The notes beneath the pieces are model-generated. The model had not been told where the DNA came from, made no database searches, and saw only the letters and a list, made by a program, of their open reading frames with translations. The position numbers and the translations under genes were made by a program. A stretch of DNA of 64,000 nucleotides. Origin: Pseudomonadota bacterium. GTDB lineage: Bacteria > Bdellovibrionota > FAC87 > UBA2466. Position 1 is the first letter of the stretch. Every line of letters begins with the position of its first letter. The stretch lies in the NCBI GenBank assembly GCA_009927165.1, contig RFNO01000053.1, positions 16,143 through 80,142 on the forward strand. Direction: 5' to 3'. Shown here in pieces: positions 50,022 through 55,762 of this stretch.

Positions 50022-50273
50022 ATGAACCGTTGGCTATTGAGCTTACTTCTTTTCTCTGGACTTGTATGGGGGGAACACGCGGATCGCGTTCATTCCCCTC
50101 ACCAGGATCTTCCCCTCTGGCAAGAAGCTATTCATAACCGACAAGAGAATAACGAGTATCTTTTTCCCGTAGATGTGAAAGAAGCTAATGAGTTTCAGGA
50201 GGCACTTTATCGCTTTTTGGGAACTCTAGCAGAGATCAATTTTGGTCCGGTAAAATCAGAACCTACCAACTAA
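50022..50273 (+). CDS. Small secreted hypothetical protein
   Basis: ATG at 50022 and signal peptide MNRWLLSLLLFSGLVWG. 3' end overlaps the convergent motB. Confidence 0.35.
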   Translation: MNRWLLSLLLFSGLVWGEHADRVHSPHQDLPLWQEAIHNRQENNEYLFPVDVKEANEFQEALYRFLGTLAEINFGPVKSEPTN

Positions 50274-51054
50274 GGAAGGGAATTTCTCGATCAGGCGTAG
50301 CAACACTGATCTCAACTCTTCTGTTTTTGGCTCTTCCTTCTGGGCTGTCTTCTTCAGCAATGGGTTGTGTATTCCCAAATACCCCCATAGACACTTTGGA
50401 TTTTGGAAAACTTGTGCCTTCGATGAGGAAACGAACGATATTATAAGAGCGCTGAGAAGAGAGATCCCAAGCTTCTTTTTCGCTGGCCGTTCCCCGATCT
50501 AGAAATTCCCCATTGTCTGAGTGCCCTTCAATTTGAACTGGAAGATCAAGAGCAGCTAGTCTTTTCCCTAATTCAAATAGAAAAGGAACCTGATTTCTCT
50601 TTAACTTGGCACTTCTGGGTGCAAACAGCATTGCTTCGCCGAGTCTGATTTTAAAACCGATGGCAGTTTTTAGAATTTCGACGTCATCTTGACCTGATTG
50701 GACTCCAGTTGCTCTCTCGAAAATACCCCGAACTTGTTCCGCAATCCGTTGCATCATGGCTTCTTCGTCTTTGGAAAACTTTCCATTTTCTTTTGCTGAA
50801 GGAGGAACTTTGGACCCTGTATCAGCAGGCTTATCAAAGGGGGTAAAGGGATTACCTTTCAGAGGAAAAATTCCGCCAGACGTGGTGAATGACTTTTGAA
50901 TGCTTTCTACTGCTTGTTTGTATTTACTCTTATCGGTCTGTCCCAAAGCGTAGAGAATCGTAAAAAATGCAAAGAGCAGGGTGATAAAGTCAGCGTAAGA
51001 AACAAGCCACCGTTCAAGATTCTCGTGTTCCTCGTGATGTTTTTTCTTACCCAT
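50263..51054 (-). CDS. motB: Flagellar motor stator protein MotB (OmpA-like peptidoglycan-binding C-domain)
   Basis: LVSYADFITLLFAFF plug/TM region with the conserved Asp. OmpA-like C-terminus (NRRVEI). Confidence 0.8.
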   Translation of the reverse strand: MGKKKHHEEHENLERWLVSYADFITLLFAFFTILYALGQTDKSKYKQAVESIQKSFTTSGGIFPLKGNPFTPFDKPADTGSKVPPSAKENGKFSKDEEAMMQRIAEQVRGIFERATGVQSGQDDVEILKTAIGFKIRLGEAMLFAPRSAKLKRNQVPFLFELGKRLAALDLPVQIEGHSDNGEFLDRGTASEKEAWDLSSQRSYNIVRFLIEGTSFPKSKVSMGVFGNTQPIAEEDSPEGRAKNRRVEISVATPDREIPFLSW

Positions 51055-51065
51055 CGCTCTTTCCT

Positions 51066-51890
51066 TTAAGCTGCTTTCTTCTCCGCGCCACCTTCGCCAC
51101 TTTCAGCTCCGGCTTTATGTCCTTTGCCGTGTTCCATTTCCATATTATTGAGTCGGTCCTCAATAATACGAGGGTTAAGTCCCGCTTGAATGGCTAAGAG
51201 TCCCGTGCAAATGATTTCCATTTCTTCCGCTTCGTGTTTCCCCAGCTTTTTTGCTTTGTTCCCCATGGGAATGAGGATTAAGTTTGCTAGGCCGACACCA
51301 TAAACTGTTGCAACGAAAGCAACGGCGATTCCGGAACCCAATTTGCTGGAATCGGATAAATTACCCATCACATGAATGAGTCCTAAAACAGCTCCGATGA
51401 TTCCAATGGTAGGAGAAAAACCACCTCCAGTTTCAAAAACTTTTCCCACGGCATTCGCATGCTCTTCGGTTTTGAAGATTTTTTCTTCCATCATTTCTCG
51501 CAGAATGGCAGGATCGTAACCATCCACAATTTTTCTCAAGTTTTGTGCGAAAAATGGGTTTTTGATATTGGCGACTGATTTTTCAAGCGCCAGAAGACCA
51601 TCTTTTCTAGCCAAGTTTGCCAAATCTACTATTTCTTTGATGAGGCCACTGAAATCTGGTGATTTCCCAAAGAATATTTTGGGAATCATTTTAATTGCGC
51701 TGCTGAATTCCTCTCCGGTACAAGCGAGCATAGTAGCTCCTAAAGTGCCACCGAAAACAATTATTGCAGCTGTCGGTTGAGTGAGCGCACTAAGGTGCAA
51801 GCCCTCAAGAACGGCACCGCCTATCACTGCAAACATCCCTAGAAAAATACCAATACATGAAACGATCATGATTGTTTCCGAGCCTCCCAA
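51066..51890 (-). CDS. motA: Flagellar motor stator protein MotA
   Basis: Four TM helices. MotA/TolQ/ExbB family conserved C-terminal TM3-TM4 region. Confidence 0.8.
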   Translation of the reverse strand: MGGSETIMIVSCIGIFLGMFAVIGGAVLEGLHLSALTQPTAAIIVFGGTLGATMLACTGEEFSSAIKMIPKIFFGKSPDFSGLIKEIVDLANLARKDGLLALEKSVANIKNPFFAQNLRKIVDGYDPAILREMMEEKIFKTEEHANAVGKVFETGGGFSPTIGIIGAVLGLIHVMGNLSDSSKLGSGIAVAFVATVYGVGLANLILIPMGNKAKKLGKHEAEEMEIICTGLLAIQAGLNPRIIEDRLNNMEMEHGKGHKAGAESGEGGAEKKAA

Positions 51891-52075
51891 GAAGTGTGAA
51901 AAATACTTTTTTTATAGTCCTTAAAAGCAGCTACTAACTCATCCACTCTCTCTCGAACAATAAGTTGGAGACCAGTAGTCAGAGTGATGACGGTATCGGG
52001 AGTTGCTTCGATCGTTTGTATCTGTTCAGGGTTGAGCATGACTGAAGACCCATCGAATTTAGTAATACGGATCAC
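51866..52075 (-). CDS. flbD: Flagellar protein FlbD
   Basis: MIRITKFDGSSVMLNPEQIQTIEATPDTVITLTTG... matches the FlbD family pattern. Directly upstream of motA-motB, as in spirochaetes and Firmicutes. Confidence 0.7.
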   Translation of the reverse strand: MIRITKFDGSSVMLNPEQIQTIEATPDTVITLTTGLQLIVRERVDELVAAFKDYKKSIFHTSWEARKQS

Positions 52076-52178: not shown

Positions 52179-52763
52179 TTGGTTGAGGCCTTACATTTGA
52201 ATAAGGGCATGAAAATTTACACAAAATCCGGTGACGAAGGCATGACGGGACTCATCGGTGGTGTTCGAATTTCAAAGGGAGCTCCCCGAATCATTGCTTA
52301 TGGAGAAATTGACGAGTTGAATGCTTGCTTGGGGGTCATTCGCGCAGAAACTCCCCATATTCTTCTTAAAAACGCTATTGGGGAAATCCAACACCAGCTC
52401 TTTACCATTGGAGCCCAATTAGCCGCCCCGCATACCGATCCAAAAATTGAGCGGATTACGGCAGCCCATGTCGAGAGCCTCGAGCGTCAGATTGACGCTA
52501 TGCAACAAACCTTGTTGCCTTTAAAGCATTTTATTCTGCCTGGCGGCTCAAAAACCGCTGCCTTTCTTCACTTAGCTCGAACAGTTTGCAGAAGAGCGGA
52601 AAGAAGCATGGTTGCTCTGTCTCAGAGTCCACAAGAGCCAGTAGATGTCTGGTGCCTTACTTATATCAATCGTTTATCCGATTACCTTTTTGTGATGTCT
52701 CGTTTGGCTAACCAATTAGAAAAAATTGAGGATATCCCTTGGATTCCTCAAAAGACCCTGTAA
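52179..52763 (+). CDS. ATP:cob(I)alamin adenosyltransferase, PduO-type (likely start at Met11, ~52209)
   Basis: MKIYTKSGDEGMTGL...GEIDELNACLG motif of PduO/MMAB-type ATR. Confidence 0.8.
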   Translation: MVEALHLNKGMKIYTKSGDEGMTGLIGGVRISKGAPRIIAYGEIDELNACLGVIRAETPHILLKNAIGEIQHQLFTIGAQLAAPHTDPKIERITAAHVESLERQIDAMQQTLLPLKHFILPGGSKTAAFLHLARTVCRRAERSMVALSQSPQEPVDVWCLTYINRLSDYLFVMSRLANQLEKIEDIPWIPQKTL

Positions 52764-52840
52764 CCCCCCTAAAAATCGAAGGATCGAGTGAATTGACTGA
52801 GGCCTAGTTCTCATTTAAATACTTACTCAAGTGAGAAAAC

Positions 52841-53185
52841 ATGCAGCCATCGGAAATTTATACAAAAGTTGCTCATCAATTAACAAGACGAGATCACTCA
52901 CCGGAAGTTTTCAATTTATTGGCGGATACTTTCAAAGCTTTAGGGGATCCGACACGCGTTCAAATTGTTTGGTCGTTAACTCATGGTGAATTGTGCGTCA
53001 CCGACATTGCAAATCTACTCGATTTAACTGCTTCCGCAGTCAGTCATCATCTTCGAACTTTAAGAAATTTGAGATTGGTTAAAGTTCGCCGAAATCACCG
53101 AAGTCTTTTTTATTCTCTGGATGATGACCACATCGAAAATCTTCTAGAAGAAGGTATGGAACATGTGGAGGATCTCATTTCATGA
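52841..53185 (+). CDS. ArsR/SmtB family metalloregulatory transcriptional repressor
   Basis: LADTFKALGDPTRVQIVWSL...CVTDIA...VSHHLRTL winged-HTH. Candidate metal-sensing Cys and His residues. Confidence 0.8.
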   Translation: MQPSEIYTKVAHQLTRRDHSPEVFNLLADTFKALGDPTRVQIVWSLTHGELCVTDIANLLDLTASAVSHHLRTLRNLRLVKVRRNHRSLFYSLDDDHIENLLEEGMEHVEDLIS

Positions 53186-54939
53186 AAAAGGCCTTCCTCC
53201 TGTTATTCAGTTCAACCTTAATCTGGGCCAGTGATTCAGCTCCTAGAATGGTTGTACATATGTTGAATTACATCGCAAAAGATTACTCCGGGGCGGTAGG
53301 TCCTGATGGAAAAGTTCTCAGTGAATTTGAATATCAAGAACAAAAAGAATTTGTTCAGAGGATTGTTGATTCTAGTTTGACAGTTTCTAATCTTAAGGAA
53401 CCCCAGATTCAAATCAAGTTACATCAACTCCAAAAACTTATTGATAAGAAAGCGCCACCCCATTTAGTAAAGCAGCTGTCAGAATCCATATCGGAAAATA
53501 TCATTCAAAAAACCGCTCTTCTCGTAGCCCCAGTTCATCAAGTGAATTTAACTAATGGAAAAACTCAATACGATCGCAACTGTGCTCAATGTCACGGCGT
53601 CGACGGAGCCGGGGATGGTCCCGCAAGTGGAAATTTCAATCCTCCTCCCACTAATCTCAAAGGTTCTAAACTCAGTGGCACTTCTCCTTTTCAGTTGTTT
53701 AATACCATCAAGTTGGGCGTTCCCGGGACAGCGATGGCATCCTTTGATTATTTAACAGATGCTGAGGTTTGGGACATTGCTCATTACGTAAATAGCTTGA
53801 TCCCAAAAAATGAAGAAGCTTCTACTGTAGGGTCTGTTTCTGCAGCCCTGAGATATTTGGACGGAGCTTATTGGTCCTATTCTCAATCAGATTTTCAGAG
53901 TGCCAAAACTCAAGCGATTGAGGCCTATTTAGAGGGAGTGGAACCCCTGGAACCCAGACTTCGCGCCATTGATTTAGCGTTTACTAATGAATTAGAACAG
54001 TCGCTCATGCTTTTTCGGCAAGCAATCGATAAAAGATTGCCCAGTCCCGCAGTCAAAGAGCGCTTAGAACATTGCAACATTTTACTCAATCGAGTTGAAA
54101 AAGTTCTCGCCAAAAAACCGTCATCCGCAGCTTTTACATTCTCAGTAGCATTTGGAATTTTCTTACGGGAAGCTTTTGAATCGGCTTTGTTGCTCATCAC
54201 ACTTTTGGGAGTTATTCGGTCTATTGGCACATCCTCTGCCAATATTTTTGTTCATGCCGGTTGGATTTTGGCGGTGATTGTTGGAATTGGCAGTTGGTTT
54301 TTTTCTGGATGGCTTTTAGCTATTTCTGGAGCGCAAAGAGAGTTGCTCGAGGGTGTAGTAGCCCTATTAGCTGTTGGGATGTTGCTCTTTTTCGGTTTTT
54401 GGATGCATCGAAAAACCGAAATCGGACGTTGGAGAGACTTTATAAAAGAAATGGTTTCCCTGGCAGTTCAGAAAAAGAATTTGCTTGGCTTAGGGATCGT
54501 TTCTTTTATGGGAGTTTTCAGGGAGGTTTTTGAGACGGTAATTTTTCTCAGAGCTCTTTTGTTAGAGGCTGGCCCTCAGCATGAGGCCGTGTTAGGGGCA
54601 GGGGTTTTGGTTGCATTCGTGTTAGTTATTGGACTGAGCTGGTGGAGTATTCGGATGAGTGCTCGACTACCGGTTCGACAGTTATTTCTCATCTCCTCAT
54701 GGGTCATGTTTTCATTGAGTTTTGTCCTTCTGGGAAAAGGAATCCATGCTCTTCAAGAAGCGGGTCTTCTTTCTGCTGCTTCAACGGGTTGGAACTTTCA
54801 GTTTGAATTATTGGGAATTTATCCCAGTTACCAAACGCTCATTCCTCAAATGGTGTTATGTTTATCTTTGCTCGTGTTTTTCTGGTTGGGCAAACAATCA
54901 ATGGCAATCAATATCACTAAACGAGCTGATTCAGTTTGA
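53182..54939 (+). CDS. Cytochrome c domain fused to an FTR1/EfeU-family high-affinity iron permease
   Basis: Signal peptide, CAQCHG heme-binding motif, then 7-TM FTR1 region with two REXXE motifs (REAFES, REVFET). ATGA overlap with the arsR stop. Confidence 0.75.
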   Translation: MKKAFLLLFSSTLIWASDSAPRMVVHMLNYIAKDYSGAVGPDGKVLSEFEYQEQKEFVQRIVDSSLTVSNLKEPQIQIKLHQLQKLIDKKAPPHLVKQLSESISENIIQKTALLVAPVHQVNLTNGKTQYDRNCAQCHGVDGAGDGPASGNFNPPPTNLKGSKLSGTSPFQLFNTIKLGVPGTAMASFDYLTDAEVWDIAHYVNSLIPKNEEASTVGSVSAALRYLDGAYWSYSQSDFQSAKTQAIEAYLEGVEPLEPRLRAIDLAFTNELEQSLMLFRQAIDKRLPSPAVKERLEHCNILLNRVEKVLAKKPSSAAFTFSVAFGIFLREAFESALLLITLLGVIRSIGTSSANIFVHAGWILAVIVGIGSWFFSGWLLAISGAQRELLEGVVALLAVGMLLFFGFWMHRKTEIGRWRDFIKEMVSLAVQKKNLLGLGIVSFMGVFREVFETVIFLRALLLEAGPQHEAVLGAGVLVAFVLVIGLSWWSIRMSARLPVRQLFLISSWVMFSLSFVLLGKGIHALQEAGLLSAASTGWNFQFELLGIYPSYQTLIPQMVLCLSLLVFFWLGKQSMAINITKRADSV

Positions 54940-54940
54940 G

Positions 54941-55762
54941 TTAACTGGTTAAGTGTTTATTCAACCATTGAGTCAGCTGGACGAAGTAGTCGTTTTTATC
55001 AAGGTCGTTGTGCGGCTCATGATACCCACCTGGCATAATGTAGAGATTCTTATCACGACTACGGATCTGATTGAGTAATTCAAAACTTCCTTCAAGTTTG
55101 ACTATTTTATCCAAAGATCCATGTGCAAACAAAACAGGTAAAGTAAGTGTAGATGCTATTTCTTTTAGTTTGGGCAGTTGATCCAGAACTTCTCGTCCTT
55201 GATTGAGAGTATTAGTATGGCAACAAAGAGGATCGGATAAAAACTGTTTCACTACTTCAGGATCGCGTGAGATAGCCGACTTATCACTGTTGCCAGAAAC
55301 ACGAAACGTTGGAATGACTTTTACGAGCTGTTTTCCAAGAGCAATCACATAGGGATTGATTGCGTCCCCAGTAAGATAAGCTGGAGCACTTAAAATTAAC
55401 CCCCTGAATGCTTTTTGATAATATTGCATGAAAGTCATGGCAATAGCCCCGCCGAGGCTATGTCCGAGGAGAAAAAGGGGGAGAGGTTCTTGCTCTCTAC
55501 ATATCCATCGATATACTGAAGCAACATCGTCAACGTAATCGGTAAACTTCTCAATCCATTGACGTCTTCCACCACTTTGGCCAGAGCCCCTCAAATCAAA
55601 GCGAACGACGCTATAACCGTCTTTTAGGAGAGCCTGTTCCGTATTGAGATGTCTTCCCGAGTGCTCACTCATTCCGTGAACCAAAATAACTCGTCCTTTG
55701 GAGGGTACTTGGCTGGGCTCTGTAGACCACACCGCCAACTTCTCAACGAAAAAAGCCGACAT
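54941..55762 (-). CDS. Alpha/beta hydrolase (lysophospholipase/monoacylglycerol-lipase-like)
   Basis: HGMSEHSGR, nucleophile elbow GHSLGG, catalytic Asp/His downstream. Confidence 0.7.
   Translation of the reverse strand: MSAFFVEKLAVWSTEPSQVPSKGRVILVHGMSEHSGRHLNTEQALLKDGYSVVRFDLRGSGQSGGRRQWIEKFTDYVDDVASVYRWICREQEPLPLFLLGHSLGGAIAMTFMQYYQKAFRGLILSAPAYLTGDAINPYVIALGKQLVKVIPTFRVSGNSDKSAISRDPEVVKQFLSDPLCCHTNTLNQGREVLDQLPKLKEIASTLTLPVLFAHGSLDKIVKLEGSFELLNQIRSRDKNLYIMPGGYHEPHNDLDKNDYFVQLTQWLNKHLTS

Follow-up and report, generated by a model that had tools for sequence, protein, structure and literature searches.

A predicted α5-type ArsR/SmtB metal sensor is joined to a cytochrome c/FTR1 permease of the PbrT family in a Bdellovibrionota-like bacterium

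Which signal switches on a permease that carries its own cytochrome c, and which metal does such a permease move? The question is posed by two forward-strand genes in the 64,000-nucleotide stretch of contig RFNO01000053.1 that we analysed (the window): arsR (52841–53185, 114 amino acids), which encodes a repressor of the ArsR/SmtB family, and a gene for a cytochrome c/FTR1 permease of the PbrT family (53182–54939, 585 amino acids). The annotation of the locus is well supported: the family is known and its regulatory partner is new, but the system as a whole is not of a novel type. An earlier account of it, made from the DNA letters (hereafter the sequence-only reading), described the sequence correctly, but its interpretation is only partly supported: the novelty attributed to the fusion and the extent of an inverted repeat needed correction, and the iron-sensing role given to ArsR found no support. 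The model that we favour, at roughly even confidence, is that the pair forms an autoregulated operon that is derepressed by metal and makes a haem-containing FTR1 permease, which would provide a route of iron supply independent of Fur.

Both open reading frames are as first described. The ATG of the permease gene and the TGA of arsR overlap in the ATGA at 53182–53185 (forward strand), and a Shine-Dalgarno sequence, GGAGGA (53167–53172, forward strand), lies within the 3′ end of arsR, 9 nucleotides (nt) ahead of this ATG; both elements were read directly from the DNA. The same two genes were called independently on 16 metagenome contigs with an identical permease protein. Furthermore, of the 16 genome loci that most resemble the window, 12 have a same-strand ArsR gene directly upstream of the permease gene, and an (A/G)TGA overlap is kept at 10 of the 12 orthologous junctions, with the window counted. 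In a neighbour-joining tree, a phylogeny of the fusion having been proposed by the sequence-only reading as a check, the ArsR-linked permeases fall into one clade that includes the window and a second small clade; the ArsR linkage with the (A/G)TGA overlap is specific to the clade of the window. As far as can be told from sequence, arsR and the permease gene are a genuine two-gene operon that is translationally coupled through its ATGA.

To judge from its ligands, ArsR is an SmtB/CzrA-type α5 metal sensor that carries a complete site. The protein matches Pfam HTH_5 (PF01022, 62.8 bits, E 2.8e-17) and the NCBIfam model HTH_metalloreg (NF033788, 95.5 bits with a cut-off of 55), and its closest solved structures are SmtB (E 5.6e-21), NmtR and CzrA. 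It is 40–48% identical to SmtB of Synechococcus, CzrA of S. aureus and NmtR of M. tuberculosis over a core that runs from the winged helix-turn-helix to α5 and covers 86–93 of the 114 residues. In the ungapped alignment with SmtB (43% identity), D95, H97, H108 and D111 of ArsR coincide with D104, H106, H117 and E120, and the first three also correspond to D84, H86 and H97 of CzrA; the CzrA counterpart of D111, which lies past the end of the printed alignment, we take to be H100. The ligands of NmtR align at the four positions as well. ArsR fits the α5 motif D-x-H-x10-H-x2-(E/H/D), its last ligand being an Asp, in contrast to the Glu or His of the three characterised proteins. Across 12 orthologous regulators these positions do not vary (D, H, H and, at the fourth, D or E), although the N-terminal arms of the same proteins bear no relation to one another.

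A second potential site, the α3N site (site 1 of SmtB and the CadC class), was considered and rejected. C52 and D55 of ArsR match C61 and D64 of SmtB, but the N-terminal arm lacks Cys residues and varies among the orthologues, the N-terminal α3N ligands of SmtB being absent or not conserved. As the N-terminal partners are missing, only the α5 site is credible in ArsR. The α5 sites of the ArsR/SmtB family accommodate Zn(II), Co(II) or Ni(II), and a repressor that has taken up metal comes off the DNA; to our knowledge, all characterised α5 sensors of the family derepress in this manner. Judged by its ligand set, ArsR most likely responds to metals of the Zn(II)/Co(II) class, and Ni, Cd and Pb are possible effectors.

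The conservation of this site also bears on whether ArsR senses metal at all. Many proteins of the family do not, several of them among the Protein Data Bank (PDB) matches of the window ArsR, and the presence of a single Cys, C52, would allow for a constitutive or redox-responsive autorepressor akin to HlyU, NolR, BigR and PagR that holds the permease at a set low level or answers a non-metal cue. However, the Cys pair of a BigR/SqrR-type switch is absent, C52, the sole Cys of the protein, is lost in one orthologue (L018), and the four α5 ligands remain invariant in 12 otherwise divergent proteins. We regard a non-sensing ArsR as very unlikely.

Upstream of arsR, the sequence-only reading had pointed to a TTGACT-N17-TAAATA promoter overlapping an inverted repeat, TTCTCA-N17-GTGAGAA, as a plausible ArsR operator. 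Both hexamers are present on the forward strand, TTGACT at 52793–52798 and TAAATA at 52816–52821, separated by 17 bases, the latter within the −10 region TTTAAATA (52814–52821). TTGAC is invariant, and identically spaced, in 11 of 11 orthologous upstream regions, where a conserved CATTTAAA box follows 17–18 nt further on. The inverted repeat does exist, but its extent had been misjudged: it is an imperfect 14-2-14 repeat, TTCTCATTTAAATA-CT-TACTCAAGTGAGAA (52808–52837, no strand assigned), in which 11 of 14 positions are complementary, and not a 6-N17-7 repeat. It lies over the −10 region and is kept in orthologues, in agreement with the proposed overlap of operator and promoter, and we consider it the candidate ArsR operator. 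When searched for as a perfect palindrome with at most three mismatches, the 14-2-14 arrangement is found once in the window, with zero occurrences expected. A 6-N18-6 version of the repeat as first described, with at most one mismatch, matches three sites in the window where 0.34 would be expected; the two additional sites, one of which is intragenic, are probably due to chance.

The candidate operator derives its weight from conservation in orthologues and not from the window locus by itself. At the same place in the orthologues, the 12-bp core of the repeat is complementary at 11 of 12 positions in L007 and at 10 of 12 in L004 and L010, values reached by 0–3% of shuffled sequences, and among the 86 loci examined the core motif has no location other than upstream of arsR. 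The right arm of the repeat (ATGAGAA) holds the arsR start codon in most orthologues, and the mRNA there would thus have a very short leader and be nearly leaderless. In the window (52831–52843) and in L003 (4650–4662) arsR starts 10 nt further downstream, and the GTG or ATG of the arm is out of frame; the leader of arsR is very short here too and shows no obvious ribosome-binding site. Repressors of the SmtB/CzrA type classically regulate themselves through an inverted repeat with a 2-bp centre that covers the −10 and start region, and the imperfect repeats of SmtB, CzrA and NmtR lie over their own promoters in the same way. These three regulators control exporters or a metallothionein, whereas the window ArsR controls a permease from a family of importers.

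This last difference leads to the earlier proposal that ArsR is a candidate iron sensor, in which Fe(II) would be the effector and the operon would serve classical high-affinity iron uptake. The proposal does not agree with the regulatory logic of the locus. As α5 sensors release DNA when metal binds, iron sensing would amount to positive feedback on an iron importer, with import induced at high iron, and the ligand set of ArsR is that of Zn/Co/Ni sensors. We know of no Fe-sensing member of the ArsR/SmtB family. The literature searched, the coverage of which is incomplete, yielded no paper in which ArsR is tied to a cytochrome c/FTR1 permease. Nor does the promoter contain a Fur box: within 52701–52900 the closest match to GATAATGATAATCATTATC is 9 of 19, a background score met thousands of times in the window. 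In favour of an Fe(II) sensor are the FTR1 core of the permease with its REXXE motifs, the divergent Fur gene of some relatives and the behaviour of a cyanobacterial protein. The latter, cFTR1 of Synechocystis sp. PCC 6803 (Slr0964), resembles the window permease in that it is a bacterial permease of the FTR1 family for which no dedicated ferroxidase partner is known. According to a preprint (bioRxiv 10.1101/2021.11.08.467730, citing Xu 2016), it takes up Fe(III), which may first be formed by re-oxidation of Fe(II), and, in contrast to our reading of the window operon, it is induced by iron starvation. On balance, we find an iron-responsive ArsR highly improbable.

What, then, does the sensor control? 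The profile search that had been suggested for the fusion finds both of its halves above the Pfam gathering scores: FTR1 (PF03239, residues 324–530, 65.4 bits with a cut-off of 25.3, E 6.6e-18) and Cytochrom_C (PF00034, 53.6 bits with a cut-off of 21.3, E 6e-14), with Cytochrome_CBB3 matched as well. The initial description of a mono-haem cytochrome c domain (CAQCH) fused to an FTR1 core with both REXXE motifs is borne out, as the single CXXCH and the motifs are present and C134, C137, H138, Met185, REAFE and REVFE are invariant in 29 of the 29 homologues in our alignment (35–64% identity). The protein begins with a probable Sec signal peptide, MKKAFLLLFSSTLIWA (53182–53229, on the forward strand, as are all permease features), with cleavage after IWA (followed by SD); it was judged from its KK, hydrophobic core and small residues. 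This signal-like segment has a low predicted local distance difference test (pLDDT) score in the AlphaFold2 model, and the seven transmembrane (TM) helices of the protein place its N-terminus outside according to both model and hydropathy.

The predicted periplasmic part consists of a class I mono-haem cytochrome c domain (residues 120–206, 53539–53799) flanked by two four-helix bundles. The CAQCH haem motif comprises residues 134–138 (53581–53595), with Met185 as the axial ligand, and the domain has structural matches to c552 and to the CcoP domain of cbb3 oxidase. In bundle 1 (residues 20–111, 53239–53514), Y30, D34, Y35, E50 and E53 are invariant in the family and H26 and E56 nearly so. Bundle 2 (residues 215–309, 53824–54108) is marked by the motif AYLEGVEPxEP and by invariant Y249, G252, E254, P255, E257, E272 and R279. 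The invariant acidic and aromatic residues of the two bundles are candidates for a metal site.

The FTR1 core with its seven TM helices (residues 316–584, 54127–54933) was delineated with Pfam FTR1, AlphaFold2 and hydropathy. It carries the invariant REAFE in TM1 (helix 316–348; residues 329–333, 54166–54180) and the invariant REVFE in TM4 (helix 434–463; residues 447–451, 54520–54534). FTR1 permeases are usually credited with just these two REXXE motifs. The window permease displays a third, RELLE, in TM3 (residues 386–390, 54337–54351), of which R386, E387 and E390 are invariant in the family and which reads REMTE in PbrT. The mean pLDDT of the full AlphaFold2 model is 81, and that of the periplasmic part modelled alone is 92.7. 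A Foldseek comparison of the full-length model with the PDB returned cytochrome c matches only and none for the FTR1 core, and neither sequence nor fold searches of the PDB turned up a solved structure of FTR1 or EfeU.

The sequence-only reading had presented this fusion as remarkable. Judged by its homologues, it belongs to a known, widespread and already named family and is not novel. A protein search turned up considerably more than 100 full-length proteins that share all three Pfam domains; several carry the NCBI name ‘cytochrome c/FTR1 family iron permease’, as do many plasmid-borne homologues. Relatives are encoded at no fewer than 421 genome loci in a scan of one genome per species. A search with the periplasmic module alone returned 195 clusters at E ≤ 1e-30 among representatives at 50% identity, most of those listed being 580–680 amino acids long, and the module is therefore essentially always fused to FTR1. 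Separately, 795 Escherichia plasmid records, mostly of conjugative plasmids, match the permease at less than 60% identity, with none among the 30 best matches listed.

The studied member of this family is encoded on pMOL30 of Cupriavidus metallidurans CH34, directly downstream of a gene for a MerR-family Cd/Pb regulator and divergently from those for a P-type ATPase and LspA. This gene is pbrT of the pbr lead-resistance operon (WP_008645747.1; iron/lead transporter family). BLASTP aligns the window permease with PbrT over 93% of its length (residues 16–561, 31% identity, E 1e-83) with all motifs in register, including the CXXCH and the equivalent of Met185. The two proteins share a signal sequence, a helical bundle, a CxxCH cytochrome c, a second bundle with AYL(E/D)G.EP and a seven-TM FTR1 core with RExxE in TM1, TM3 and TM4. 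Again, analogous to the window, a metal-sensor gene, pbrR, lies directly upstream on the same strand. In contrast, PbrR is a MerR-family activator, not an ArsR/SmtB α5 repressor joined to the permease by an ATGA overlap, and pbrT is part of a resistance island that also encodes the PbrA ATPase and PbrBC, whereas the window operon is isolated, with housekeeping genes on either side. In the literature searched we found almost no functional work on the permease family and no functional information on PA5248. What is new here is modest: an α5 ArsR/SmtB repressor as the partner, a defined and conserved operator, and contexts across the family that point to control by metal excess.

Two of these contexts recur outside the clade of the window. 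A monophyletic Bacteroidota clade of 11 loci (L050, L053, L056–L058, L061, L068, L072 and L077–L079) has a same-strand trio made up of a Fur-family-like gene (PF01475, 35.8 bits), a gene for a P1B-2 Zn/Cd/Pb ATPase (TIGR01512, 504 bits with a cut-off of 313.5; the copper model remains below its own cut-off) and, in the last position, the permease gene (e.g. L068:2075–6902), an ATPase-permease arrangement that mirrors pbrA/pbrT of Cupriavidus. At four Bdellovibrio-like loci (L034, L040, L066 and L080), the permease gene lies divergently to an operon that encodes an ArsR and a cation diffusion facilitator exporter with an HMA domain (e.g. L040:3564–4813, minus strand). The ArsR of these loci has a CxC α3 motif (ELCLCEL) without the α5 ligands and represents another sensor class than the window ArsR. 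Four loci have a divergent canonical Fur gene. The permease family is wired to metal sensors and to Zn/Cd/Pb efflux more often than to Fur.

The FTR1 core and the REXXE motifs are common to the window permease and to yeast Fet3p-Ftr1p, E. coli EfeUOB, Campylobacter P19-cFtr1 and Bordetella FtrABCD. Fet3p-Ftr1p and EfeUOB couple transport to the oxidation of Fe(II) (PMC9174327), and this coupling of the oxidase-dependent permeases is presumed to extend to the window permease. The redox partner sets the systems apart: a multicopper oxidase, a cupredoxin-M75 EfeO, P19 or the EfeB peroxidase is a separate protein in the known systems, whereas the window permease has a c-type haem domain fused to it. 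As the sequence-only reading had noted, no EfeO, P19 or multicopper-oxidase gene adjoins the permease gene. An assignment to the EfeUOB type was rejected, as the permease scores 70 bits against a cut-off of 255 for EfeU and 103 against 303.8 for the EfeU/Ftr1 model TIGR00145, with EfeO not adjoining. Profile comparison of the helical periplasmic domains with EfeO likewise gave no similarity (hhalign probability 0.2%).

The haem domain may have a ferroxidase- or a ferrireductase-like role, as the sequence-only reading had suggested. Sequence does not reveal which way the electrons flow, and the cytochrome c domain resembles soluble electron carriers as well as CcoP of cbb3 oxidase. The haem could hence act as a ferric reductase or a point of electron entry, reducing Fe(III) or another metal at the cell surface, or feeding electrons from Fe(II) to respiration for energy with transport a secondary matter. 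Such a reversed or respiratory flow is at odds with the oxidation-coupled transport of Fet3p-Ftr1p and EfeUOB, and a single c-type haem has no obvious periplasmic reductant save the respiratory chain. We therefore give it little credence and return to the model of a metal-derepressed operon for an oxidising permease.

In this model, an apo ArsR dimer would occupy the 14-2-14 repeat over the −10 region and the transcription start, shutting the promoter. A divalent metal filling the two α5 sites, each formed by D95 and H97 of one subunit and H108 and D111 of the other, would cause the repressor to leave the DNA. The bicistronic mRNA would then be made, with translation of the permease coupled through the ATGA and its strong GGAGGA. 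The permease would be exported by way of its Sec signal peptide, to display two four-helix bundles around a haem-loaded cytochrome c in the periplasm. If Fet3p-Ftr1p and EfeUOB are a guide, Fe(II) in the periplasm would be oxidised at or near the haem domain, the electron passing towards the respiratory chain, and the resulting Fe(III) would enter the cell by way of the REXXE glutamates. Our analysis establishes the structure of the genes, the motifs, fold and family membership of the proteins, the α5 ligands and the conservation of operator and promoter, whereas we infer which metal is the effector, that it derepresses the promoter, that haem is attached, which way the electron moves and which metal is transported. 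Since α5 sensors derepress upon metal binding, induction by an excess of Zn/Co-class metal is most likely, rather than induction by iron starvation: the operon would be switched on by a surplus of competing metal and not by lack of iron. This logic of metal excess parallels the co-transcription of pbrR and pbrT, pbrRTU having been reported as a single transcript (PMC3431237).

Iron is favoured as the substrate on the following grounds: (i) the haem ligands are invariant in the 29 family members, with the CXXCH and Met kept in PbrT, and an invariant CXXCH and Met185 argue for a redox-active substrate, meaning iron, (ii) the REXXE motifs are those of iron permeases, (iii) some relatives are linked to Fur, and (iv) in CH34 the PbrT protein rises 4.1-fold after metal starvation by ethylenediaminetetraacetic acid (EDTA) and is unchanged (1.1-fold) after metal shock (PMC11647595, Table 2). 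This last response fits metal acquisition better than a role specific to lead.

The same evidence has to be weighed for uptake of the sensed metal itself. In the literature PbrT, a member of the iron/lead transporter family, figures as a putative protein for the uptake of Pb(II) (PMC3431237; PMC1526738), which was the original proposal for it. Extended to the window by the full-length homology of the two permeases, this would mean that ArsR senses Zn, Cd or Pb and that the permease imports the same metal into the cytoplasm for it to be bound or pumped out there, the haem being structural or serving some other purpose. The recurrence of the permease gene beside Zn/Cd/Pb exporters speaks for such a scheme. 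However, Pb, Zn and Cd are physiologically redox-inert, yet the CXXCH and Met185 are invariant and retained even in PbrT; PbrT answers EDTA starvation and not metal shock; and, among the open reading frames of the window and their Pfam matches, no efflux pump or metal-binding protein was found adjoining the operon. Import of the toxic metal is thus unlikely as the function of the window permease.

With iron as the cargo, a Fur-independent iron supply under competing-metal stress is a plausible purpose for the operon. A more specific version, which we consider less likely than not, is that an SmtB-type sensor of Zn/Co-class metals turns on a haem-dependent ferroxidase-permease so that iron is imported when a competing metal threatens to displace it, an ‘iron rescue’ that bypasses Fur. 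If true, this would explain the long-puzzling presence of pbrT in lead-resistance operons as well as that of its relatives beside Zn/Cd/Pb exporters in Bacteroidota and in Bdellovibrio-like bacteria. The family is widespread, and its sole functional label, Pb(II) uptake by PbrT, is a tentative one. Should ArsR answer Zn/Co-class metals, this compact operon would be a clean system in which to ask what the built-in cytochrome c does, which metal crosses the membrane, and why the ‘importers’ of this family are tied to sensors of metal excess and to efflux genes in several phyla.

Several observations weigh against the metal-derepressed iron-supply model. An importer that is induced under metal excess is counter-intuitive, and the PbrT protein of CH34 is itself not raised by metal shock (1.1-fold; PMC11647595). 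The metal selectivity of ArsR/SmtB proteins in vivo is not deducible from their ligands alone. At the promoter, the sequence-only reading was right about the presence of the hexamers and the −35 element is firmly conserved, but TAAATA agrees with TATAAT at just three of six positions; a consensus promoter scan, in which promoter-like sites of the window were no more frequent than in shuffles, made no call at the site. The 12-bp operator core of the window (9 of 12) is not significant when taken alone, being reached by 18% of shuffles. Read-through from the gene upstream, a PduO homologue that ends 77 nt before arsR with no terminator-like site found in between, could yield expression independent of ArsR. 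Lastly, support for the function of the protein pair comes from sequence, a structural model and analogy.

The upstream gene (52179–52763, same strand) encodes a PduO-type ATP:cob(I)alamin adenosyltransferase (Pfam, 4.7e-60). Seven related loci show synteny of this gene with the ArsR-permease pair, and the operon may be connected to it through cobalt handling or through transcription that reads on from it. On the other side, an α/β hydrolase gene (54941–55762, minus strand) converges on the operon and is separated by 1 base from the permease stop at 54939, which leaves no room for an intergenic terminator. A search of the whole window against Rfam returned no RNA families. Genes for RodZ, a tetratricopeptide repeat (TPR) protein and a Ser/Thr kinase lie further downstream. 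Just upstream, on the minus strand, is a motB-motA-flbD flagellar stator cluster (50263–52075), and the host is an uncultured, motile bacterium, Bdellovibrionota-like, of about 43% GC.

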